Notes: generated from the letters alone by a model not told the origin. A DNA stretch of 64,000 nucleotides from Eubacteriales bacterium (GCA_045651985.1 JAZRTK010000026.1:36634-100633); one strand, 5' to 3'; counted from the stretch's first letter, positions 1 through 16,979 are shown. Numbers and translations: made by a program.

Positions 1-516
1 GACGAACATACAAAAGACATCCTTGACGTTGCAATTATTGAATTCAACGATACGTACAAGGTTATCCAGGAATTCTCCCCCATTGAATATATGAAGCCGG
101 TAGAGCTTTATGCAAGCGGTATGACATATATGTCCGGCGCAATTGACAAGGCAATCGAAATGGTAACCGATAGGTCTCGTTTTTACAGAAGATCGGGAGC
201 TGAACCATATAAACCTTGGATAGTTTTGATCTCTGACGGCGGTCCTATGGATGATATTGAAGATGTTGCACATAAAGTGAATTTGATGGTGGAGCAGGAG
301 AAGCTTGCCTTCTGGTCTCTCGCTGTTGAAGGCGCAGACCTTGAGGTTCTTCACGAACTTTCGGGACGCCGAGTTCTTAAACTTGCAGGTTATGATTTTT
401 CCAGCTTCCTTGATTGGGCAAATAAGAGCATGAGAGCAGTCTCTCAAAGCTCTCCCGGAGAAAAGGTCAAGGGACAGGCATTGCCACCGAGTGTTTCTAT
501 CGATGACCTTATGTGA
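1..516 (+). CDS. von Willebrand factor A (vWA) domain protein, TerY-like; 5' end cut by window edge
   Basis: Frame 1 is open from nt 1 (DEHTKDILDVAIIEFNDTYKV...) and runs into listed ORF 91..516. WIVLISDGGPMDD and the alternating hydrophobic/polar pattern fit the C-terminal half of a vWA fold. A PP2C gene follows. Confidence 0.8.
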   Translation, partial: DEHTKDILDVAIIEFNDTYKVIQEFSPIEYMKPVELYASGMTYMSGAIDKAIEMVTDRSRFYRRSGAEPYKPWIVLISDGGPMDDIEDVAHKVNLMVEQEKLAFWSLAVEGADLEVLHELSGRRVLKLAGYDFSSFLDWANKSMRAVSQSSPGEKVKGQALPPSVSIDDLM

Positions 517-1414: not shown

Positions 1415-3214
1415 ATGAAAATAGAGGAATTCAAAAACAGCGAGGTACGGGAAGCGGAGACCAACAATAAAGCAGAAAAAGAACTTCAAAATGCACAGAA
1501 TCACAAGGCGCATAGAGAGAAACTTGAAGATTATTCATGTAAAGAACTTTTCGAAATGGTGAAAAAAGATCCCGATAGAGTCATAAAGCTTAACGCGGAC
1601 TTCAGAAAAAAATATGAAGCTGAAATTCGCGATATGACGGTGGAGGAATATCGTGATCATAAGAGCAAGCTTTCAGATGGCGACAATAAAACTGAACACC
1701 TATCAAGAGGAGAAAAATTTGAAGAAAAAAACGAAAAATCCGAACAGCGAGGGCTTTTAGTTTTTTACGAACAGACAAGAGAGAAAAATAAAAGTTTTAT
1801 AACCAATGGTGGCGAGCACAAGACCTATGGCGAGGCAGTTAAACAAATTTCCGATCGCGCGGAGACATACATGAAAGAAATGGGAGTGTCTGAAGATAAG
1901 ATTAAAGCTGTTAAATCAGATATTGAAGCGGAAATTTTCAAGCAACACGAAGAGGCAAAATCAAGAGGCATAGGCGACCATGGAATACGCCATATTTATG
2001 GTAACTTTGAAAGAAGTGAAAGCTATCTAAATACAAGAAACGATGTGAGTAGCGAGCAGAAACTTGGTGTTTTGATTGCGCAAACTTATCATGATGAAGG
2101 CTATACACAAAAAAATGATTTAGTCAATAATTCCGGGGTATTGCATGGTGGTTTTGACAAAAAACACGATCTGGCAAGTTTAGAAGTTTGGAACAGTAAA
2201 AAAGATTTATATGAAACTGTTTTCAGTAAAGAAACAATCTCTTCTGTCGACAAAGCAATTGGTGAACACAATGTTAGTGTAGAAGATGATAATGGTGTTG
2301 AGACGATCAAAGCAAATACATCCAAAGAAGCCGATGTTATTGTTTCTACTGTACATATTACTGATAAATTAGCCTTAAGCGGACGAGAGAAATTTTCCGA
2401 GTTGCTATATACAGATCCCAAGTTGATCGAGTTAACCGAGGGAATGAACTCTATGTTCAAAACTCTTTTTGATGAAAAAAGTATTTTTAAAGAAAGTGAT
2501 GAAAAACAGAATTCTAAATTTTTAGAGAAATATCATTCCGTGATAAATGATTATATAGATTCAAAATATTCGCCTGAAGATGCAGTAAAATTCATAGATG
2601 CGGTTAATAAAGACATTGGATTTAATTCCGGTAAGTTTACTTCTCGAATGAATTATATTTATACTCCTTCGGATTGTTATAGATATAATCCCGAAACTAA
2701 AACTAATGAAATAACTGTTTATAAGATTGATCATGGTGATACCAAGTCACAAGATTTACAAAACGACCAGTTAAAAAAATTATATAAAGATTTGGGGTTG
2801 AATGACGATGAAATAGTAACCGCTATTAAACAAGGAGGATACGAAGATAAAGATAGAGGCTTGAGTGTTCACGTTGAAACAAAAACGGTGGATGAAATAC
2901 GCAATATCGAATCCGAAAAACATCAAGAAAACAATGATTTAAGGGAAGTTAATGAAAGAATTGATGCTGGACGAGAGCAATATCAAGAATTAAACAACAA
3001 GTTTTTGGAGATTGTCGAAAATTTGGAAGCAACGGATATAAACTACGAAGATTACGATAAGATGTGTAAAGCTTGTAATAAATCTGATGGATGTACTAAA
3101 TCCGAATTTGAAGGAAAGACGGAAACGGACCGAAAGAAACTTATAATTGAGACTGTTTCAGAAATGATAATAACTGAAGTTAGTAATACTCTTGGAAAGG
3201 AGAAATTGAAATGA
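1415..3214 (+). CDS. hypothetical protein, possible HD-type phosphohydrolase core
   Basis: 599-aa uninterrupted ORF with a K/E-rich N-terminus. GDHGIRH, then about 30 residues, then YHDEGY, then KKHDLAS and HITDKLA resembles an H..HD..D pattern. This is not verified. Confidence 0.55.
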   Translation: MKIEEFKNSEVREAETNNKAEKELQNAQNHKAHREKLEDYSCKELFEMVKKDPDRVIKLNADFRKKYEAEIRDMTVEEYRDHKSKLSDGDNKTEHLSRGEKFEEKNEKSEQRGLLVFYEQTREKNKSFITNGGEHKTYGEAVKQISDRAETYMKEMGVSEDKIKAVKSDIEAEIFKQHEEAKSRGIGDHGIRHIYGNFERSESYLNTRNDVSSEQKLGVLIAQTYHDEGYTQKNDLVNNSGVLHGGFDKKHDLASLEVWNSKKDLYETVFSKETISSVDKAIGEHNVSVEDDNGVETIKANTSKEADVIVSTVHITDKLALSGREKFSELLYTDPKLIELTEGMNSMFKTLFDEKSIFKESDEKQNSKFLEKYHSVINDYIDSKYSPEDAVKFIDAVNKDIGFNSGKFTSRMNYIYTPSDCYRYNPETKTNEITVYKIDHGDTKSQDLQNDQLKKLYKDLGLNDDEIVTAIKQGGYEDKDRGLSVHVETKTVDEIRNIESEKHQENNDLREVNERIDAGREQYQELNNKFLEIVENLEATDINYEDYDKMCKACNKSDGCTKSEFEGKTETDRKKLIIETVSEMIITEVSNTLGKEKLK

Positions 3215-3906
3215 GTTTAGGCAACGATTTTTTAGAGCTAATCAATTTACTTTGGGAAATTGAAGAATTTGATATGTGGCTTCCCAAAGAACACGGCTCC
3301 CTTGCTTATCTTATGGAACGGCTTTATGGAACTGATGCGTACGCAGAAAAATATGACAAGTTAAAATCATTGGCAACAGAGAAAAAGGCAAACGAATTGG
3401 CTAATTATATTTCTTGTGAAATTTTAGCATCGGCTCAAAATGATAACACTATAAGTGAATCTGATAAGCTGAACTTAGAGGCAATGCTTGTTAGACAACA
3501 AAAGAATTATAAAGATAAAGCGTTAACGGGATTTGGTATAATTCAAGAAAAGTATATGCCGGATTGGTTTTTTGAGATTTTTTCGAGTTACATCATGTTA
3601 GAAGAAACAAAAAGAGAAACACTTATTCTCCTATATTGTAAAAACGAAGGAATGAATCAAGAACAAGCCAACGAAGCATATAAAAGACTCTCTACGCAGT
3701 ACGATTTACTTAACGAGTTTTATTTCTATGTTAAGAATAAAAGATTCAAAAACCATTACCCAAGAACGGTAAAGAAGTTGTCGGCAAAATCTCTTTACGA
3801 AACAATTTGCGACACTCCTCTTGCCGCTTATCTGTATCTTGTGTATTTAAGAGAAGACCCAGAAAAAGCATTTGCTGAATACCATGTAAAATTGAATAAT
3901 AAATAA
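3211..3906 (+). CDS. hypothetical protein (helical, no recognisable motif)
   Basis: The start overlaps the upstream stop (ATGA at 3211-3214), implying translational coupling inside the operon. Confidence 0.6.
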   Translation: MSLGNDFLELINLLWEIEEFDMWLPKEHGSLAYLMERLYGTDAYAEKYDKLKSLATEKKANELANYISCEILASAQNDNTISESDKLNLEAMLVRQQKNYKDKALTGFGIIQEKYMPDWFFEIFSSYIMLEETKRETLILLYCKNEGMNQEQANEAYKRLSTQYDLLNEFYFYVKNKRFKNHYPRTVKKLSAKSLYETICDTPLAAYLYLVYLREDPEKAFAEYHVKLNNK

Positions 3907-6070: not shown

Positions 6071-9000
6071 ATGAATACTATTTCATCTTTTGATATGAAT
6101 AATAAGGCACAGCTTGTCCACAACGGTATTGTCACCGCGGACAAATTTATCAACAAGAGTTATTTGATAAATCTCGCTGATAATGAAGTGCTTCCCTTGA
6201 GTGATGAGTTTAATACGACCAAGACGATCAGGCTGTATCAGATTGAAAAGCTCGTTTATGACAAGGAAGAAAATATATGTGATAAGCTTATAAGCGTTTA
6301 CAGCTCTCTTTTGAATATTGACAGTTCCGTTCTTCTTGTTATCTCCGGTGAGGAGAGTGCCATCACCTTACACATCGGAATCCGCTCCGTGAATAACACT
6401 TCCGTTGCGGGTTTGATATTAGAAAAAAGTTTTTTGGGTAATTTCCCCGGCAGCTCACTGAAGAGACTTCGGAATGATGAAATAGAAGCCGTGATGAAAA
6501 GCGGTGTTGTTTCTGATTCTGTGGGGGTATTGAAGAACATATCATGTGTGACAGTCGTTCCCTCTATGCGAGACGAAAACAAAGATAAGTTTGTGCAGGG
6601 TATTGAGAAATTCATAGATACTATGCGCGGTGCAAAATATACTGCGGTTTTGATAGCTCAGCCTGTAAGCAAACAGGGTTTGGAGCAGAGAAAACGCGGA
6701 CTTGAGGAAATGTATTCCGCTTTGTCTCCTATGGCGAAAACAACACTTTCTTACGCAGAAAATTACAGCGAAGCAGTTACTAACGGAATGAGCGAAAATT
6801 TTTCCCACTCTATTAATAACAGCGTAAATATCACCAACGGCTCTAACAGCAGCGATAGTTATTCGAGAAGCAAAGGCGCAAATCTTGGTTTGTGGGGATC
6901 CGGAGTGAATACCGGGACATCACGTAGCTATACGTCGGGGCAATCATGGTCGAAATCGGTTACGCAAGGAAGCGCTGATACAACATCTACAGGAACTAAT
7001 AGTTCGACCTCGCAAACTACAGGGAATACAAGAACTCTTTCAGCAGAGCATCAAAATAAATCTGTAGCTGAGTTGATGACGAAACTGGAGGAACAATTAA
7101 AGAGAATTAAAGAGTGCGAGGGCTTTGGCCTTTGGGATTGCGCTTGTTATTTTACTTCCGATGATATCCAAACAGCTGTGGTTGCGGCAAATACATATAA
7201 AGCGCTAATGCTCGGAGACAATACTTCGGTTGAAAATTCTCATGTAAACATATGGGATATTCGTTCAAAAGATGAAAACAGAAAAAACGTATTGGATTAT
7301 GTAAAATGCGGTATACACCCGGTAATGAAAATCGAACCTGAGCAAGGATACGCTCCCCAAATCGTAACGCCCGGAAGCTATATCAGCGGAAAGGAACTTC
7401 CTTTTTTGGTCGGTATACCTCGCAAGTCAATTCCCGGGGTTCCTGTAAATAGCATTGCCGAGTTTGGAAGAAATGTATTTGTTCAAAATAGGGCAAGTGA
7501 CAGAGAGACTGTTCAACTTGGAAGCATATACCATATGGGCAAGATAGAAAAAAACAAAGTGGAACTTGACCTTAACAGTTTTACATCTCATTGTTTTGTC
7601 ACGGGCTCAACCGGTTCGGGAAAGTCAAATACGGTATATTGCCTTTTAGAAAAGTTTCACCAAAACCATATCCCCTTTCTTGTCATAGAACCGGCAAAAG
7701 GTGAATATAAATCGGCTTTTGGGGCATTGGAGAATATAAACATTATTTCGACAAATCCGTATGTAGGACAAATGCTCAAATTAAATCCCTTCAGCTTCAA
7801 TTCGCATATACATATTCTGGAGCATTTGGATAGGCTGATAGAGATCTTTAACGCTTGCTGGGAAATGTATGCCGCTATGCCGGCAATCTTAAAAGATGCC
7901 ATAGAGAAAATTTACGTTGACAAGGGCTGGGACCTACTGAATTCGGTTTATCTTGGTGAAGGCGAGCCGGTCTTTCCAAATTTCGGGGATCTTATGAAAG
8001 CACTTCCCGATATTATCAACGATTCGGGTTATTCCTCCGATACCAAAGGGGACTACATAGGCGCATTGGTTACTCGAGTGACATCATTGACTAACGGTAT
8101 ATCCGGTCAGATTTTTTGCGACAATTACGAGATTCACGATTCCGTTCTGTTTGATGAAAACACAGTTGTCGATTTGAGCCGAGTGGGGGCTATGGAGACA
8201 AAATCTCTTATTATGGGACTGATTGTGCTCAAATTGACAGAACACCGTATGGCAAATTCAAGCAGAGCAAATTCGGAACTTAAGCACATTACCGTTTTGG
8301 AGGAGGCCCACAATCTTTTGAAACGCTCATCGGGAGAATCGGCAGGCAGAAATCTTGTAGGGAAATCTGTCGAGATGATATGTAATAGTATAGCCGAGAT
8401 GCGTACATACGGAGAAGGATTTATCATTGTGGATCAATCTCCTACGGCGATCGATGTTGCAGCTATTAAAAATACGAATACTAAAATCATAATGCGTTTA
8501 CCTGAACGAAACGACTGTGAAGCCGTCGGAAATGCTGCTGGATTGAATGAGGATCAAAAAAAGGAAATAAGCAAGCTTGAAACGGGCGTTGCTGTCGTCA
8601 TGCAGAATAATTGGCTTGAGGCGGTTTTGGCGCGCGTGGATCTGTTCTCCAATCTTTATGAGGCCTGTATTCCGACCGTTTCCTATGAAGCTATGAAGGC
8701 GTTCAAAAGTATTGTGGTTCGGGAACTTATGAATCAATATATCATAGAAAAACAAATGAACCTTGAACGCATGCTTGGGGCGATTGACTCTGTTGATATT
8801 CCCTTTCACAAAAAGGCGGAAATGCGCCGTTGTATGGAGGGAACGTTGAAGCGTCTTTCCACAAAACGCGATGTAGATTTTTTCTCCGAAACACTTTATA
8901 ATCTTGTCGGGGCAAACTCCGTGTTTGAGATAGCAGAGTCGACCATTTTACCATCCAAAGAGACTGAGTATAGGTATGCTCCCGAAAGTGTTCGTGAGTG

Positions 9001-9157
9001 GAAATCACGGATCAGTGACGGTGTGAGAAGATGTATATCTCTACCGGAAGAATATATTCAAGCATTGCTTGATTTTTTGCTTTATGTCCAAGAAGAAAGA
9101 AACAAGAAAATCGATTATTACGAGATACAAAAAATCTTAGAGCAGGAAGTGCGATAA
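6071..9157 (+). CDS. HerA/FtsK-like (DUF87-type) P-loop ATPase with large N-terminal region
   Basis: Walker A is GSTGSGKSNT (nt 7604-7627) and Walker B-like is ITVLEEAHNL (about nt 8294-8311), with IIVDQSP and KIIMRLP downstream. ATG 6071 is preferred over TTG 6065 because GAGG lies about 9 nt upstream. Confidence 0.8.
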   Translation: MNTISSFDMNNKAQLVHNGIVTADKFINKSYLINLADNEVLPLSDEFNTTKTIRLYQIEKLVYDKEENICDKLISVYSSLLNIDSSVLLVISGEESAITLHIGIRSVNNTSVAGLILEKSFLGNFPGSSLKRLRNDEIEAVMKSGVVSDSVGVLKNISCVTVVPSMRDENKDKFVQGIEKFIDTMRGAKYTAVLIAQPVSKQGLEQRKRGLEEMYSALSPMAKTTLSYAENYSEAVTNGMSENFSHSINNSVNITNGSNSSDSYSRSKGANLGLWGSGVNTGTSRSYTSGQSWSKSVTQGSADTTSTGTNSSTSQTTGNTRTLSAEHQNKSVAELMTKLEEQLKRIKECEGFGLWDCACYFTSDDIQTAVVAANTYKALMLGDNTSVENSHVNIWDIRSKDENRKNVLDYVKCGIHPVMKIEPEQGYAPQIVTPGSYISGKELPFLVGIPRKSIPGVPVNSIAEFGRNVFVQNRASDRETVQLGSIYHMGKIEKNKVELDLNSFTSHCFVTGSTGSGKSNTVYCLLEKFHQNHIPFLVIEPAKGEYKSAFGALENINIISTNPYVGQMLKLNPFSFNSHIHILEHLDRLIEIFNACWEMYAAMPAILKDAIEKIYVDKGWDLLNSVYLGEGEPVFPNFGDLMKALPDIINDSGYSSDTKGDYIGALVTRVTSLTNGISGQIFCDNYEIHDSVLFDENTVVDLSRVGAMETKSLIMGLIVLKLTEHRMANSSRANSELKHITVLEEAHNLLKRSSGESAGRNLVGKSVEMICNSIAEMRTYGEGFIIVDQSPTAIDVAAIKNTNTKIIMRLPERNDCEAVGNAAGLNEDQKKEISKLETGVAVVMQNNWLEAVLARVDLFSNLYEACIPTVSYEAMKAFKSIVVRELMNQYIIEKQMNLERMLGAIDSVDIPFHKKAEMRRCMEGTLKRLSTKRDVDFFSETLYNLVGANSVFEIAESTILPSKETEYRYAPESVREWKSRISDGVRRCISLPEEYIQALLDFLLYVQEERNKKIDYYEIQKILEQEVR

Positions 9158-10783: not shown

Positions 10784-10819
10784 GCTCCGACGGAATCAAT
10801 CCGTCGGAGCTTTTGCTTT
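10784..10819 (+). terminator. intrinsic terminator closing the seven-gene operon
   Basis: GCTCCGACGG-aatcaat-CCGTCGGAGC followed by TTTTGCTTT. It overlaps the last codons of the convergent transposase ORF. Confidence 0.7.
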
Positions 10820-12430
10820 GATTTTGAAATGGCCTGCTTTGATGTAGGCGAGGTCCTCATCGGAAATTCGGTTTTTGCCGTCGCTCTCGAGCAATCGGTA
10901 AATAATTGCGTTAATGTCCGGGTGCTTCAGCAGCATCGAGATCACAGACCAGTTGGACAGCTTTCTGTAACCCTTGAGCCCGCACTCCTTACATATCTCA
11001 TGGAACTTTGTTTTCGGAATGCTCAGAAGATACTCGCGCTTGTTAAACGTCTTAAATCCGTCCTCCTCGTTGAACTTGAAAAATTTGTTTTCCGTTGCTA
11101 TTCTCGCCGCCTTTGTCTCTGCTTTGAGGATGGAAACGTACTTGCCTGTGGTCTTTGAAAGATCCACTGTCTGATTTTCAACGTCCAACGTGGTGTAGTT
11201 GACTTTCAGCTTCAGAAGTTCCTCGAAGATCATTTCTGCGTCCTTGAATGAAGTAGGTCTGCCGCTGTGATCAACCGCCCAATTCTTCACGAAAGTGAAA
11301 AATCCCACGTAATCCTGCAGATATTTCGTGCTTACATTGGTCTTATCCTTGTAAATCACGTCCTTGAGGTCTTTGTGGAGCTCGTTGACCCTTGCGAGGC
11401 TGAGCCCGTTAGACTTCTTTAGAGCGCAAAATTCGGCGTATGAGAGCTCGCCTCGATTAACTATTCGCTCTATTGCGCCGTCCTCGTATAACGATTTCAA
11501 TATCCTCTTGTTTTTTGCCGCTGTTTCAGCGGCTTTTTTGGGGTTTGAGGGATCGGGTTTCTCATATCCGTACTTTTTCAATATTTCCTCATAAGTTGAG
11601 GGCCTGATATAATGGGGAATATTGAAAAGACTGCTGTATTCCTCGTATGTACTGTTTCCGTCGCTGCATAAGAATGATGGATTTTCAAAATGCTCCTCGA
11701 ACAATTCAATGAACTGCTCTGTTGTCATTTTTCCAAGCCCGCTGACTTTACATACACAATAACCTCTGTTATCGATAGCTGTTATGATTGTTGCAAACTC
11801 GGGACCCATAACGCCGAGCTTTGACGGCGACAAGCCATATCGAGGAGTTCTTATCTCGCCCTTCAAAGTGCTCGTGAGATTGCGACTTCCTTTCTGAGAC
11901 TCCCGAACAAAGGTCTCGTCTACCTGAATAACACCTGTAAGCTTTGGCATAGGAACGGACGCCATTGCGTGCATCAGCTTCAATCGCCATAGCCATACGG
12001 TCTTGGGGTCAATTTCATCACAACCGTAGTCTTTTTTCAGAATGTTAACGGTGCTTTGAATTGAGATGTTGTTCAATAGAGTTTCCAACACCTTTACCCA
12101 AATGTCCCAATGCCAGCGAGTTTTCTCAAGCATCGTGCCGCTGAACAGGGAATATTCGTGCTCACAGTCCTTACATTTGTATTTCTGTATTCCTGTGGAC
12201 CGCTTTCCGTTCTTAACCACGTTCTCCGAGCCACAAGCTGGACAGACCGAGTTGATGCCGAGCTTTTCAAGATGAAGCTGATGATCAAGTGTTATGAGCT
12301 TCCTCATTTCCTTGTCAAAACTGCTTTTTGTTCGGTCGGAATATTCTTCTACAAGCTCCTTGAATTCGGCGTAAGACAGTCTGTTGAGTATGTCGGATAA
12401 TTTCTCCTTAGTTGGTTTTGTTATTGCCAT
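10796..12430 (-). CDS. IS1595-family (ISXO2-like) DDE transposase with extended C-terminus
   Basis: N-terminal Zn-ribbon (CPACGS...KCKDCEH) and VIQVDETFVRESQKG DDE-type motif. Start moved to ATG 12430 (MAITKPTKEK), which has GGAGG 8 nt upstream. Confidence 0.75.
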   Translation of the reverse strand: MAITKPTKEKLSDILNRLSYAEFKELVEEYSDRTKSSFDKEMRKLITLDHQLHLEKLGINSVCPACGSENVVKNGKRSTGIQKYKCKDCEHEYSLFSGTMLEKTRWHWDIWVKVLETLLNNISIQSTVNILKKDYGCDEIDPKTVWLWRLKLMHAMASVPMPKLTGVIQVDETFVRESQKGSRNLTSTLKGEIRTPRYGLSPSKLGVMGPEFATIITAIDNRGYCVCKVSGLGKMTTEQFIELFEEHFENPSFLCSDGNSTYEEYSSLFNIPHYIRPSTYEEILKKYGYEKPDPSNPKKAAETAAKNKRILKSLYEDGAIERIVNRGELSYAEFCALKKSNGLSLARVNELHKDLKDVIYKDKTNVSTKYLQDYVGFFTFVKNWAVDHSGRPTSFKDAEMIFEELLKLKVNYTTLDVENQTVDLSKTTGKYVSILKAETKAARIATENKFFKFNEEDGFKTFNKREYLLSIPKTKFHEICKECGLKGYRKLSNWSVISMLLKHPDINAIIYRLLESDGKNRISDEDLAYIKAGHFKIKAKAPTD

Positions 12431-12785
12431 TTCTTTACCTCCAAATGATTTCTGTACCCTCGCTATAAGTATGACTGAAACAGCGTCAGACCAACCTGAA
12501 GCTATGGGCAGTGTTGCCTCAATTTTCAACCGCGAGAGGGTACTTTTTCATCTGAAATTTTGTTATCGTTTCTCCGCAAACTATGCGAAAATCACATCTT
12601 CGAAATTACAGTTTTGTTTCGTTTTGGGGCCGTTTTTCCCCAAAATCAATTATTCCGGCCTTATTTTATCATATTTTTGAGATTTTTTCTATTCAAAAGT
12701 GTTTTTTGCCGCGATTTGTGCAACTTGTACAAACATTTATAGCCATCAGTCAATTCTTGGAATATATAAGAAGTGAAAAACAATC

Positions 12786-12833: not shown

Positions 12834-14246
12834 ATGACAACAACGGAGACGAACATGGAAAATTCTTCAACTAATTACTCATATATTGAAGGAATTGTTT
12901 ACTCAAAACAATTCCGTAATTTGCAGGATAAGACACAGCTGTTTTATTCAGCTCCCAAAAGACAAGTTAGGACGAGATTAACACACACAATAGAGGTAAA
13001 GATTATAGCACATGATATAGGTCAGCAAATCAACAAAAAAATGGGTACAGAGTTGATCGACTTAAATTTAGTGGAAGCTATCGCCTTAGCACATGATATA
13101 GGGCACACTCCCTTCGGGCATGTTGGCGAAAGAACTATAAATGATATTGTTTCAAAAAAAGATAATTTGGGCGGATTAACTAATGCTAACGGCACTTCTC
13201 AAATTAGATTTAAGCATAATGTTAACTCTATGAGAATTCTCGAAGAATTGAATATTCAAGACTGGAGAATTATTGATGGCGCATTGTGTCATACGAGAAT
13301 TTTTTATAAGAACGATAAAAATTCATCTTCTAAAAATCCTTATAACCCATTTGAGGTAAGCCCTTCTAAAATAGCAAAATTTATATACAATGAACATGGC
13401 ATTCTGTTTAACGCCCCGACGCAAGGAAAGGTGTATAGCTTAACCTTGGAAGGGCAAATTGTATCTATTGCTGATGAAGTTGCACAAAGAATAGCAGATA
13501 TAAGCGATGGCTTGGAATCTAGATATTTTGAAAAAATCAAAAGTATTCTTTCAACGAAAAAAGAAATACATACGCGTGCTGAATTGGAACAATTTATCCG
13601 CGAAATGCTTATCAAAGATGTTGTTGACAGCACTACTGAAAACATAAAAGCACAGCCTCAAAATTTTAAAAGTAATTCTGGTATTAGTCACGCTGTATAC
13701 TATCAAGAAGTAGTTGGATTTTCAGAAAGCATGAAAGCCAAAAATGATGAATTAGAAGAATACATAAAAATCATAATGGCTCAAAGCGAAAGCGTCAGGG
13801 AGTCTGACAGTCGTTCGAGATATATTATTCGTCAATTGTACAAAGCATATTTAAATGATATAACTTTGCTGCCGGATGACTTTATCGATGATTATTTTGG
13901 TAAAATAATTAACAAACAAATCTTTTTAAATGCTATTAGCACACTCCGTGGCGCATCGCGTAAAAACAAATCAAATCAAGATTTACATAAAACACTTGAA
14001 GTTCTTGATGAGATTCAAAAGCAAAGATGGAGAATCGATAAGGGCGATTTACCACAAAAGACAGTTGCTATTAGAATTGATTTGGTGAGAAGTTATTTTG
14101 AAATTTTGATAAAAAATCATCGTACTAATAACATGCCTTGCTTAAATGATCTATTTGACGAATATATTCTTAAAATTGGTTTTTACATAGCAGGTTTAAC
14201 AAACACGGAAGCTTTTACTACATACAACCGAATTTATGGACATTAA
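12834..14246 (+). CDS. dGTP triphosphohydrolase-like HD-domain protein
   Basis: RTRLTHTIEVKIIAHDIG and ALAHDIGHTPFGHVGE are the hallmark dGTPase/Dgt-family HD motifs. The gene is very AT-rich. Confidence 0.8.
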   Translation: MTTTETNMENSSTNYSYIEGIVYSKQFRNLQDKTQLFYSAPKRQVRTRLTHTIEVKIIAHDIGQQINKKMGTELIDLNLVEAIALAHDIGHTPFGHVGERTINDIVSKKDNLGGLTNANGTSQIRFKHNVNSMRILEELNIQDWRIIDGALCHTRIFYKNDKNSSSKNPYNPFEVSPSKIAKFIYNEHGILFNAPTQGKVYSLTLEGQIVSIADEVAQRIADISDGLESRYFEKIKSILSTKKEIHTRAELEQFIREMLIKDVVDSTTENIKAQPQNFKSNSGISHAVYYQEVVGFSESMKAKNDELEEYIKIIMAQSESVRESDSRSRYIIRQLYKAYLNDITLLPDDFIDDYFGKIINKQIFLNAISTLRGASRKNKSNQDLHKTLEVLDEIQKQRWRIDKGDLPQKTVAIRIDLVRSYFEILIKNHRTNNMPCLNDLFDEYILKIGFYIAGLTNTEAFTTYNRIYGH

Positions 14247-14910: not shown

Positions 14911-14936
14911 AAATGACACCCGAAGGGTGTCTTTTT
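14911..14936. terminator. hairpin terminator, copy 2 of GACACCC..GGGTGTC
   Basis: GACACCC-gaa-GGGTGTC (14915-14931) with an A-run before and TTTTT after. Confidence 0.65.
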
Positions 14937-15022
14937 CCTTTTTATTTGCCCACACTGTTGTTTTCTTTCGTTTATGGGGTAAAATATATATACATATATA
15001 TTACGAAAAGGAGATCGATACT

Positions 15023-15877
15023 ATGCCTAAATCATCTATCACAACAACCGATTTAACAAATTTTAAGAACCATTTATATAATGAAGAAAAAAGTGCTCTG
15101 ACCATCGAAAAATACCTGCGCGACGTGCGTGCTTTTACGGCATACCTGGACCACAGGCCACTGTCAAAGGAGATCACCGTCGAATGGAAACGGTCACTGG
15201 AAGAAAGGCGGTACAGACCCCGTTCAATAAACTCCATGATCGCAAGTCTGAACAGCTTTCTGATCTTTTTGGGGGCACACGACTGTAAGGTAAAAGCCAT
15301 AAGGATCCAAAAGGCAATATACATGCCCGAAGAAAAGGAGCTGACGAAAACAGAATACAAGCGTTTGCTTTCCTCGGCAAAAAAACAGGAGCGCCTGAGC
15401 CTTATCATGCGCGCCATTTGCGCTACGGGAATAAGGGTTTCCGAGCTGAAATATTTTACGGTGGAGGCGGTCAGAGAGCGGGAGGTCTCGGTCAAATGCA
15501 AAAGCAAGAACCGAACGATAATAATACCGCAAGAGCTGAGTCGCCTTTTGCTGAATTACGCCAAAAAGCAAGGTATCGACAGCGGCGCTATCTTTTTGAC
15601 GCGAGGCGGAAAGCCCCTTGACAGAAGCTATATCTGGGCGCAGATGAAAAAGTGCTGCATAACGGCGCACGTAAGCGCGTCAAAGGTATTCCCACACAAT
15701 TTGCGAAAGCTTTTCGCACGAACTTTTTACGCAATAGAGAAGGACATTGCCAAATTAGCCGACATTCTCGGACACAGCAGCATCGAAACGACGCGAATTT
15801 ATATAATGGCAACGGGTATTGAGCACAGACGTCAAATCGAGAAACTCGGTCTGGTTTTTGCTGATTTTTTTGCTTAG
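15023..15877 (+). CDS. tyrosine recombinase (XerC/D-phage integrase family)
   Basis: Has a core-binding N-domain, ATGIRVSEL (Arg), HNLRKLFA, LGHSSIETTRIY (His..Arg..Tyr). Start moved to ATG 15023 (AAAGGAG 9 nt upstream) rather than the ORF-track start at 14927. Confidence 0.85.
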   Translation: MPKSSITTTDLTNFKNHLYNEEKSALTIEKYLRDVRAFTAYLDHRPLSKEITVEWKRSLEERRYRPRSINSMIASLNSFLIFLGAHDCKVKAIRIQKAIYMPEEKELTKTEYKRLLSSAKKQERLSLIMRAICATGIRVSELKYFTVEAVREREVSVKCKSKNRTIIIPQELSRLLLNYAKKQGIDSGAIFLTRGGKPLDRSYIWAQMKKCCITAHVSASKVFPHNLRKLFARTFYAIEKDIAKLADILGHSSIETTRIYIMATGIEHRRQIEKLGLVFADFFA

Positions 15878-16385: not shown

Positions 16386-16979
16386 ATGAAAAACGAAGAG
16401 CTTTTTAGAGAAATCTTTACAAAAAACACCATTCGCCTCGTCAGCGAGGGCGGATTTGAAGCGGCGACCACGAGAGCTATTGCGGGGGAACGCAGAGAAA
16501 TAAATAACGTCAGGGTGAACGAAGCGCATATTTACCGCATTTACGGCAAAAAGGAGCATTTATTCGCCGACGTCTTCTCTATGCTTGACTGTGAGCTTCT
16601 CGCCGCCGTGGGAGAGGCTTTGGACGAATTCTCCAATGAGACCGACAAGAAAAGGCAGTGGGAAATCCTCTTTTACAAGCTTTGGGACTTCCTTTTGACC
16701 GACGAGACAAAATGCAGATATTATGTCAGATATTACTATTCGGTATATTTTAAGGGCGAGCCCTTGAGAGTGCACAACGCAAAATTCAGAGATTTTGTTT
16801 GCGATCTGATGCCATATTTCGCCGAAAATGCCGACGTTTGCACCATTTTGCAGCACGTGGTTACAGTCGTTCTAAGCTTTGCCATCTGCGCTTATAACGG
16901 AACGCTCCCCAACGACGATCAAAACATTTTCCACGTTTTCAACGTCGTCTATTCATCTATCTCACCATATTTAAGATAA
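16386..16979 (+). CDS. TetR/AcrR-family transcriptional regulator
   Basis: N-terminal HTH pattern (FEAATTRAIAGE...EAHIYRIYGKKEHLF) with a helical C-terminal domain. GGAGG lies upstream. Confidence 0.8.
   Translation: MKNEELFREIFTKNTIRLVSEGGFEAATTRAIAGERREINNVRVNEAHIYRIYGKKEHLFADVFSMLDCELLAAVGEALDEFSNETDKKRQWEILFYKLWDFLLTDETKCRYYVRYYYSVYFKGEPLRVHNAKFRDFVCDLMPYFAENADVCTILQHVVTVVLSFAICAYNGTLPNDDQNIFHVFNVVYSSISPYLR

Follow-up and report, generated by a model that had tools for sequence, protein, structure and literature searches.

The Ser/Thr/Asn/Gly-rich tract of a VirB4/HerA-type ATPase in an Eubacteriales operon is probably a membrane-directed structural element rather than a phosphorylation linker

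Introduction

What is the role of a long run of serine, threonine, asparagine and glycine inside a HerA/FtsK-like motor protein that is encoded next to a Ser/Thr kinase-like protein and a PP2C phosphatase? The question is raised by an operon at the start of a 64,000-nucleotide stretch of DNA from Eubacteriales bacterium (GCA_045651985.1, JAZRTK010000026.1:36634-100633; the whole stretch is called the window below), whose ATPase gene carries such a tract. A preliminary description of this DNA had taken the tract for a disordered linker and an obvious candidate for regulation by phosphorylation. Alignments of homologues, structure models and the gene contexts of relatives indicate instead that it probably serves as a structural element directed to the membrane, and not as a floppy linker for phosphorylation. 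The reading that we favour, with moderate confidence, is that of a Ser/Thr-ladder hairpin within a VirB4-like N-terminal domain, which would serve in anchoring to the membrane or to transmembrane (TM) partners, in assembly between subunits, or in both, at the core of modular toxin operons.

Results

A HerA/FtsK-superfamily ATPase with a predicted VirB4-like N-terminal domain

The open reading frame (ORF) ends at position 9157 on the + strand and may start at TTG 6065 or at ATG 6071, the latter with GAGG about 9 nt upstream. Its product is a DUF87/HerA-type ATPase of the HerA/FtsK superfamily with a long N-terminal region, in agreement with the preliminary description: it matches PF01935 (DUF87) at aa 490-579 with 55.9 bits against a cutoff of 23.2—no other Pfam domain being recognised in the ATPase—and the HerA crystal structure 4d2i over aa 485-863 (E = 1.8e-12), as well as the PADLOC models HerA (5.7e-21) and mad8 (6.5e-20), the PADLOC and 4d2i matches spanning aa 470-863. 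PDB sequence matches also include 8wiv, 9c1m and 8xau. The coordinates given earlier for Walker A and Walker B proved exact (Table 1), and G512, T514, G515, G517, K518, S519 and E744-H747 are invariant across 58 homologues. The ATPase is presumably hexameric.

An AlphaFold2 (AF2) monomer model of the full protein, built with 58 homologues, and a second model of aa 1-485 alone were used to define the domain layout, which consists of a folded region (aa 5-227), a low-confidence segment (228-321), a second folded region (322-480), the ATPase domain (481-860) and a helical domain (861-1028). The predicted local distance difference test score (pLDDT) is mostly 72-90 in the first part of the N-terminal domain (aa 11-160 and 181-220; lower, 57-66, at aa 161-180), mostly 78-90 in the second part, with dips at aa 381-390 and 451-480, and 79-93 in the C-terminal helices except for the last residues. 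The P-loop module, earlier assigned to the C-terminal half, actually occupies the third quarter of the protein, with a folded region of about 155 residues before it (aa 327-480) and a helical domain of about 170 residues after it (aa 861-1028); likewise the tract, which had been viewed as a linker between domains, is placed by AF2 as an insertion inside one N-terminal domain.

In Foldseek searches, the full model matched HerA, VirB4 (4ag5, 7o43, 8rtd) and DndH-C through the ATPase domain, and the top seven PDB matches of the aa 1-485 model were full-length TrwK/VirB4 chains (E = 3.6e-4 to 3e-3), with low TM-scores (0.29-0.33). A PDB sequence search with the N-terminal profile gave nothing usable. 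On the basis of the models, the N-terminal domain has a predicted VirB4-like fold. In an alignment of 81 sequences, the fraction of the top residue is 0.68 in the ATPase domain, 0.48-0.52 in the folded N-terminal domain and 0.27 in the C-terminal domain. Over aa 329-820 the protein also resembles, weakly (E = 1.7e-15, far under the cutoff), NCBIfam NF033849 ('ser_rich_anae_1, serine-rich protein', 1163 positions), which suggests that a sister family, already curated, carries a serine-rich region N-terminal to this type of ATPase.

The tract is retained throughout a large family

The limits of the tract (aa 223-326) were set by composition and periodicity. Within them, 65 of the 104 residues (62%) are Ser, Thr, Asn or Gly, compared with 24.9% in the rest of the protein (binomial P = 6e-16), and Ser and Thr together make up about 40%. 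That such a tract exists was thus correctly perceived from the start: both peptides quoted at the time are found, at nt 6836-6877 and 6983-7036, and the span then noted (aa 249-322) is 70% S/T/N/G. A DNA tandem repeat was looked for under the tract and none was found, on which ground an origin by repeat or slippage was rejected.

The family carrying this tract is very large and uncharacterised. More than 860 homologues of the ATPase were recovered by word sharing, and a profile of the N-terminal 485 residues identified 1572 clusters (50% identity representatives) at E<=1e-3 and 562 at E<=1e-30, with a particular abundance in Lachnospiraceae and other gut anaerobes. A genome scan restricted to one genome per species gave at least 561 loci with a homologue, of which 80 were kept; these are mostly from Bacillota, and also from Bacteroidota, Bifidobacterium, Brachyspira, Campylobacter, a metagenome-assembled genome (MAG) of Vulcanimicrobiota and two Methanosarcina MAGs. 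The two Methanosarcina contigs (loci L023 and L029) encode full-length members of about 47% identity, which indicates either mis-binning or an exchange of the gene between the two domains of life.

Every one of the 81 full-length proteins of other loci (38-76% identical to the window protein) has the tract, with a length of 97-167 residues and an S/T/N/G content of 47-71%, against 22-29% elsewhere in the same proteins. A similarly rich span (median 0.60) is found at the same place, upstream of Walker A, in 114 of 114 full-length cluster representatives. Conservation in the tract is comparable with that of folded parts: the top-residue fraction is 0.48 in the proximal N arm (aa 223-255), equal to the folded N-terminal domain, and somewhat lower in the C arm (aa 301-322, 0.40) and in the centre (0.38), all three being above the C-terminal domain. 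All insertions within the tract are confined to aa 264-283.

Period-2 order and pairing of the arms point to a hairpin

The residues of the tract follow a strict alternation. In the N arm (aa 227-271), S/T/N/G occupy 0.90 of the odd and 0.27 of the even positions; in the C arm (aa 280-326), they occupy 0.89 of the even and 0.35 of the odd positions, i.e., the register flips across the tip. The median z of the spectral power at period 2 is 11.3 in the 162 arms and about 0 in four control regions. One face of each arm carries almost only small hydroxyl or amide residues and Gly, and the other alternating hydrophobic and charged residues, the charges of which covary between the arms. Such a flip in parity is required by an antiparallel hairpin in which the sum of paired positions (i+j) is odd.

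Among the 31 registers tried, i+j=549 has the highest mean mutual information (MI), and the same register contains 288 opposite-charge against 105 same-charge pairs (row-shuffled null: mean -23, standard deviation 19; z=10.8), an excess not seen in registers away from 547-555. AF2 pairs aa 221-236 with 313-328 in register 549 and aa 256-271 with 280-298 close to it (i+j 551-554), at low confidence. The eight residues between the arms form the tip (aa 272-279), a loop of Gly, hydrophobic and aromatic residues whose columns, among 81 homologues, alternate between hydrophobic residues (0.70-0.84) and Gly (0.30-0.82). In a clade of relatives linked to dynamin genes, the tip site holds instead a Gly/Ala-rich hydrophobic segment of about 45 residues (Kyte-Doolittle >=1.6), which resembles a transmembrane segment.

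The period-2 order, the indels restricted to the centre and the covariation of the arms together indicate a folded beta-hairpin and not a flexible linker, and they run counter to the disorder proposed earlier. From the alignments and models we conclude that the tract is a two-armed antiparallel beta-hairpin, with about 48 residues per arm, inserted within a single VirB4-like N-terminal domain.

Several points weigh against this conclusion. The pLDDT of the tract is below 50 in both models, as would be obtained for a disordered segment, and the predicted strands taken alone are unreliable. The MI and charge statistics (z=10.8 for the latter) are inflated by shared ancestry, which the comparison among registers corrects only partly. 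The face opposite the Ser residues and most of the arms are polar, so that this cannot be a classical transmembrane beta-hairpin, a possibility that was set aside on account of the largely polar or charged character of that face; moreover, a tip of eight residues would reach one leaflet only. On its own, a two-stranded ribbon with arms of about 48 residues would hardly be stable, and it would need an oligomer or a docking surface. Finally, the kinase synteny kept in the near clade (five loci) makes regulatory phosphorylation somewhere on the ATPase plausible.

The same alternation would also be compatible with cross-beta structure, and it could be imagined that the tract is a prion-like amyloid polar zipper by which the ATPase polymerises upon activation, giving threshold or amplification behaviour. 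The S/T/N/G/Y-rich composition fits this idea, as does the conflict-system context, prion-like assembly having been proposed for such systems (Kaur, Burroughs, Iyer, Aravind, eLife 2020, PMC7159879). However, prion-like domains keep composition and not position, whereas here register and length are fixed, the arms covary as in an intramolecular hairpin, and the tract lies in the middle of a folded domain rather than at a terminus. We therefore consider a polar zipper very improbable.

The window operon and the proposed phosphorylation of the tract

The ATPase is the sixth of seven tightly packed genes on the + strand, separated by gaps of 14-34 nt and including two overlaps (Table 1).

Table 1. 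Coordinates of the operon genes and of the parts of the ATPase in the window
Feature	Position (nt)	Strand	Remarks
vWA-domain gene, TerY-like, 3' part	1..516	+	runs off the window start; partial product matches PF00092 VWA (E=2.4e-4)
PP2C-family Ser/Thr phosphatase, 287 aa	531..1394	+	PF13672 PP2C_2 E=4.2e-28; 65% identical to the L087 orthologue
599-aa cargo/effector-like protein	1415..3214	+	no known domain
231-aa partner of the 599-aa protein, putatively immunity-like	3211..3906	+	start overlaps the upstream stop by 4 nt
Membrane Ser/Thr kinase-like protein, 702 aa	3928..6036	+	N-terminal kinase, 2 predicted TM, C-terminal ectodomain
ATPase gene, whole with stop	6071..9157	+	1028 aa from ATG 6071; VirB4/HerA-type, carries the tract
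N-terminal domain, part a	6071..6736	+	aa 1-222; AF2 and Foldseek basis
S/T/N/G 'ladder', proposed hairpin	6737..7048	+	aa 223-326; N arm 223-271, tip 272-279, C arm 280-326
Tip of the proposed hairpin, LGLWGSGV	6884..6907	+	aa 272-279; family consensus F-G-L-L-G-I-G-F
N-terminal domain, part b	7049..7510	+	aa 327-480; AF2 strands/helices; conserved (top-residue fraction 0.52, 81-sequence alignment)
P-loop ATPase domain	7511..8650	+	aa 481-860; most conserved region
Walker A GSTGSGKS	7604-7627	+	aa 512-519
Walker B VLEEAH	8294-8311	+	aa 742-747 (ITVLEEAH = aa 740-747)
VDQSP motif	8423-8440	+	inside the P-loop ATPase domain
C-terminal all-helical domain	8651..9154	+	aa 861-1028; most variable part
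Big_2 protein, 526 aa	9157..10737	+	PF02368 E=6e-20; single C-terminal TM aa 502-520; 1-nt overlap with the ATPase stop

The truncated vWA product scores 21.8 bits against a VWA cutoff of 23.8, its orthologues do match VWA, and it shares 65% identity with the complete VWA protein (241 aa) of locus L087. As for the two enzymes named in the preliminary description, the identification of the PP2C phosphatase is firm, and the Ser/Thr kinase is present but only weakly recognisable: no Pfam domain is found in it at E<=0.01, and it gives weak matches to the DMPK catalytic region (E=7e-4), PD-T4-6 (PADLOC), LanL and MAD6 (E=0.004). Its two TM segments lie within aa 387-430, and it is 57% identical over 460 aa to the kinase of L087, which carries weak Pkinase and LRR_5 matches.

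This arrangement is the basis of the view that the tract is a flexible, hydroxyl-rich linker, phosphorylated by the adjacent kinase and dephosphorylated by PP2C, which would switch the ATPase on and off. The vWA-PP2C-kinase-ATPase-Big_2 synteny is indeed tight and recurs with orthologous proteins in L087, L088, L089 and L090, and both the Ser and Thr content of the tract and its low pLDDT are as expected of such a linker; likewise, linkage was compared with conservation among homologues, and the tract was found in every orthologue that keeps the kinase. However, it is equally present, with the same layout, in every relative that lacks the kinase: the triad of vWA, PP2C and kinase genes of the window is found beside the ATPase in 0 of the 84 loci of the comparison set, and no single one of the three genes is found there either. 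Five triad-linked ATPases and eight ATPases linked to an M48 peptidase (45-67% identity) have the same counts of Ser and of Thr in the tract, and the five positions by which the groups can be told apart are all outside it, a result on which a kinase-specific adaptation of the tract was rejected. A domain scan of the operon proteins detected no FHA or other phospho-reader domain, and triads of the TerY-P type are usually proposed to form a self-contained switch that involves the vWA protein (Bell et al., eLife 2024, PMC11090510, citing Anantharaman 2012, as summarised there). In addition, the fixed fold favoured by period-2 order, centre-only indels and arm covariation is at odds with a flexible linker. 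Taken together, these data leave a phospho-switch in the tract decidedly unlikely, and the segment is far from being the obvious regulatory site that it had been called; phosphorylation of the tract as such is possible, and nothing specific in the comparisons points to the tract.

Interchangeable gene contexts around a common core

Gene contexts were compared by clustering the ORFs of 84 other loci with a homologue (the 80 from the genome scan and four metagenome contigs). The Big_2 family counts 42 genes across the 85 loci including the window, usually directly 3' of the ATPase, and the other neighbours form distinct modules: (i) a polytopic M48 peptidase with 4-5 TM; (ii) a WYL regulator with two LeoA/LeoBC-like dynamin GTPases and a small helical Gly-zipper TM protein (F4); (iii) an FN3/Zn-ribbon protein, DO-GTPase2, GAP1-N2/GAP1-M and a transglutaminase-like protein; (iv) Hsp70, GrpE and a TPR-TM protein; and (v) a TM2 protein with a patatin. 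F4 (found in L038-L084, e.g., L082 9331-9888) is about 185 aa long and is encoded directly 5' of the ATPase, with a helical N-terminal domain and a C-terminal Gly/Ala-zipper TM whose composition resembles that of the hydrophobic segment replacing the hairpin tip in the ATPases of the same dynamin-linked loci.

Among six close relatives with readable upstream sequence, four have the triad (L087-L090, 61-65% identical), in the order vWA-PP2C-kinase(LRR_5)-ATPase-Big_2 and orthologous to the window genes, and two have M48-ATPase-Big_2 (P0049 and P0120). Judged from these sequences, the kinase linkage is a genuine conserved subtype (five loci including the window) and one of several interchangeable modules.

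Genes located 3' of the ATPase in relatives encode toxin-like proteins, namely WHH, LHH and Endonuclease_NS_2 nucleases, TNT and a DUF6782 metallopeptidase, often followed by small genes. The WHH, LHH and Endonuclease_NS_2 toxins have in common a short N-terminal motif (approximately F-A-K/D ... D/N-K/Q-P-L) ahead of differing toxin domains; they occur in L038, L039, L041-L043, L057, L059, L067, L070, L072 and L082, and small genes come after them, one of these being DUF6985. A shared N-terminal motif of this kind has the pattern of polymorphic toxins with a putative common targeting region.

In the window itself, the genes for the 599-aa and 231-aa proteins are best read as a candidate cargo and partner pair, similar to toxin and immunity genes. 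Neither protein contains a Pfam or NCBIfam domain, and a PDB sequence search with the 599-aa protein gave no match. Its N-terminus (aa 17-156) resembles the N-termini of proteins encoded 3' of ATPase/Big_2 in L006 and L087, with differing C-termini, and the C-terminal half of the 231-aa protein resembles a 255-aa protein that follows the DUF6782-peptidase cargo in L086. The pair sits between PP2C and kinase, similar pairs being located elsewhere 3' of ATPase/Big_2; L088 has at the same position two unrelated genes (448 aa and 150 aa), also lacking any Pfam or NCBIfam domain. By eye, the 599-aa protein shows an H...HD-like motif (GDHGIRH ... YHDEGY), with no match to an HD-domain model.

Directly after Big_2, where relatives carry cargo, lies a gene for a 577-aa transposase-like protein with an InsA-type zinc ribbon (10796-12529, - strand), by which the 3' end of the operon may have been replaced or disrupted. 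It is followed by an HD-domain dGTPase (12834-14246) matching the PADLOC anti-phage dGTPase model (E=6.6e-47), which suggests that the operon lies within a defence island, and then by a tyrosine integrase (14927-15877) and a TetR regulator (16386-16979). The GC content of the first ~17 kb is 34-44%, compared with 46-53% in most of the remaining window (41% at 36-38 kb), in keeping with an island gained by horizontal transfer. The related loci L085, L087, L088 and L090 have integrases on their flanks as well.

The comparison of contexts shows that the ATPase, with its proposed hairpin, is the invariant core of mobile, membrane-associated operons that combine toxin-like cargo—nucleases, a NADase (TNT), phospholipases and peptidases—with interchangeable input modules.

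Proposed membrane anchoring and assembly, and the possibility of a conduit

In the reading that we favour, the hairpin would bring the motor to the cytoplasmic membrane or to transmembrane partners or hold it there, would assemble with the hairpins of neighbouring subunits of the presumed hexamer, or would do both. The link to the membrane is drawn from the hydrophobic and Gly-containing tip, the ~45-aa hydrophobic segment of the dynamin-linked clade and the match of the N-terminal domain to the membrane-associated VirB4/TrwK, as well as from the membrane partners encoded nearby: M48 (4-5 TM), the TM2 protein, TPR-TM, F4, Big_2 (C-terminal TM) and the kinase (2 TM). The input module of the window is a TerY-P-like triad, composed of a vWA protein, PP2C and a membrane Ser/Thr kinase with an ectodomain. 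Through this ectodomain the triad probably senses an envelope signal by which the system is gated; the substrate of the kinase and the direction of signalling are likewise suppositions.

A bolder version would make of the motor a self-contained translocon. By analogy with the stem of anthrax protective antigen or alpha-haemolysin, six hairpins could form a 12-stranded barrel lined with Ser, Thr, Gly and Asn, with the tips inserted in the membrane (as full TM hairpins in the dynamin-linked clade), that would serve as a conduit for unfolded toxins or nucleic acid and export the neighbouring polymorphic toxins. The arms are equal in length (~48 residues) and bear only small residues on one face, as a narrow lumen needs; the tip is hydrophobic and Gly-rich, and of TM length in the sister clade; and the HerA/VirB4 relatives are hexameric translocases. 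The loci contain toxin-like cargo (TNT, WHH, LHH, Endonuclease_NS_2, patatin, DUF6782) with small genes downstream, and cargoes with different toxin domains share N-terminal motifs. The absence, by eye, of an obvious N-terminal signal peptide in the Big_2 partner, which has a C-terminal TM, would also fit. In contrast, the eight-residue tip of the window clade is too short for a bilayer, polar residues make up most of the outer face, and comparable GAP1/DO-GTPase gene sets have been interpreted as intracellular conflict systems and not as secretion systems (PMC7159879). An exporting barrel is thus unlikely. If true, it would represent a previously unrecognised protein-export or effector-delivery machine and a new kind of such apparatus, common among gut Bacillota and transferred to lineages as distant as Bacteroidota and Methanosarcina, with exchangeable sensors acting as its gates (kinase/PP2C/vWA, M48 peptidase, dynamins, GAP1 GTPases or Hsp70).

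As an observation on the Big_2 protein in its own right, the lack of an obvious signal peptide implies either a tail-anchored protein with cytoplasmic Ig-like domains or the need for a dedicated export route.

An ordered, membrane-directed hairpin would give a structural handle on how a HerA/VirB4 motor couples to membrane and cargo, and it shifts the emphasis from the mapping of phospho-sites to assembly, localisation and translocation. Even if only the conservative reading holds, the tract is an unusual and sharply defined sequence-structure motif. Literature searches found no published report of the periodic Ser/Thr ladder, of the tip or of the wider set of contexts, and searches linking DUF87 with dynamin or with serine-rich proteins returned no papers.

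Comparison with known systems

A close structural parallel is VirB4/TrwK, which likewise joins an N-terminal domain to a C-terminal P-loop domain of the HerA/FtsK type and, like the present protein, is regarded as a membrane-associated motor. In contrast, the window ATPase scores 13.4 bits against a cutoff of 643 for NCBIfam TIGR00929 and 31.9 against 590 for NF045975, and no gene of a type IV secretion system (VirB3/6/8/10, VirD4 or relaxase) is found among the annotated neighbour families of the window and the 84 loci, not every family being annotated. With curated scores far below the cutoffs and no annotated secretion neighbour, the protein is not a bona fide VirB4. To our knowledge, VirB4 has no Ser/Thr ladder insertion.

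The anti-phage systems SIR2-HerA/Nezha, DUF4297-HerA and MADS (Mad8) contain a homologous ATPase domain, and MADS also pairs such an ATPase with a kinase. They differ in their partners, since the window has no SIR2, DUF4297 or methyltransferase partner, and the ATPase scores far below the corresponding NCBIfam cutoffs. We know of no anti-phage HerA with a VirB4-like N-terminal domain or a Ser/Thr hairpin, their N-terminal domain being a HAS-barrel. The candidate identity of a HAS-barrel HerA of a known defence system was rejected, given that the N-terminal domain matches VirB4 and not HerA N-terminal domains and that no SIR2 or DUF4297 partner is present.

In pore-forming toxins (anthrax protective antigen, alpha-haemolysin and the aerolysin family), the stems are long hairpins that show a dipeptide periodicity, contain much Ser, Thr and Gly and end in a hydrophobic tip; they come together as a barrel only upon oligomerisation. 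The resemblance is an analogy only: there is no relationship in sequence or fold, and the proposed hairpin sits on a cytoplasmic motor and has a mostly polar outer face.

Relatives of the ATPase sit inside loci of the GAP1-N2/DO-GTPase conflict systems (with FN3/Zn-ribbon, DO-GTPase2 and GAP1-N2+GAP1-M genes), which show the same accessory themes, i.e., Hsp70/GrpE/TPR or kinase+PP2C+vWA (PMC7159879), whereas the window itself has no GAP1 or DO-GTPase genes. VirB4, DUF87, M48 and dynamin are not mentioned in that study, and the ATPase thus appears not to be described there.

The TerY-P triad comprises a vWA protein, PP2C and a Ser/Thr kinase and, as relayed in PMC11090510 (from Anantharaman 2012 and Gao 2020), is a modular add-on associated with different systems. 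In the window, genes of these three kinds follow one another in the same order and precede an effector machine; the window kinase differs in having TM segments and an ectodomain (LRR_5 in orthologues) in place of a C-terminal zinc ribbon or OB fold. With the PADLOC models, at E<=0.01, the triad proteins gave only the weak PD-T4-6 kinase matches, and no model named TerY-P matched them.

The closest published description is that of the 'EccE3-HerA' ATPase in extended type III-A CoCoNuT loci (Bell et al., PMC11090510), where an N-terminal domain with a beta-strand insertion is fused to a VirB4-like ATPase, and the gene shares its operon with one for a small helical protein, has TerY-like vWA genes on its flanks and adjoins TerY-P triads. 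By this description it is alike in the layout of the protein, in the vWA, PP2C and kinase neighbours and in the small helical F4 of the sister clade. It is unlike in that EccE3 is absent from the top 50 Foldseek matches of either model and that the window operon contains no McrBC or CoCoNuT genes, the DNA 5' of the vWA gene lying outside the window. The Ser/Thr periodicity, the hydrophobic tip and the toxin, dynamin, GAP1 and M48 contexts are not reported in that work. Compared by description only, the two are probably the same or sister families. One shared motor would thereby link the TerY-P triads, the GAP1/DO-GTPase systems, the LeoA/LeoBC-like dynamins and the 'EccE3-HerA' of CoCoNuT, all of which have been described separately.

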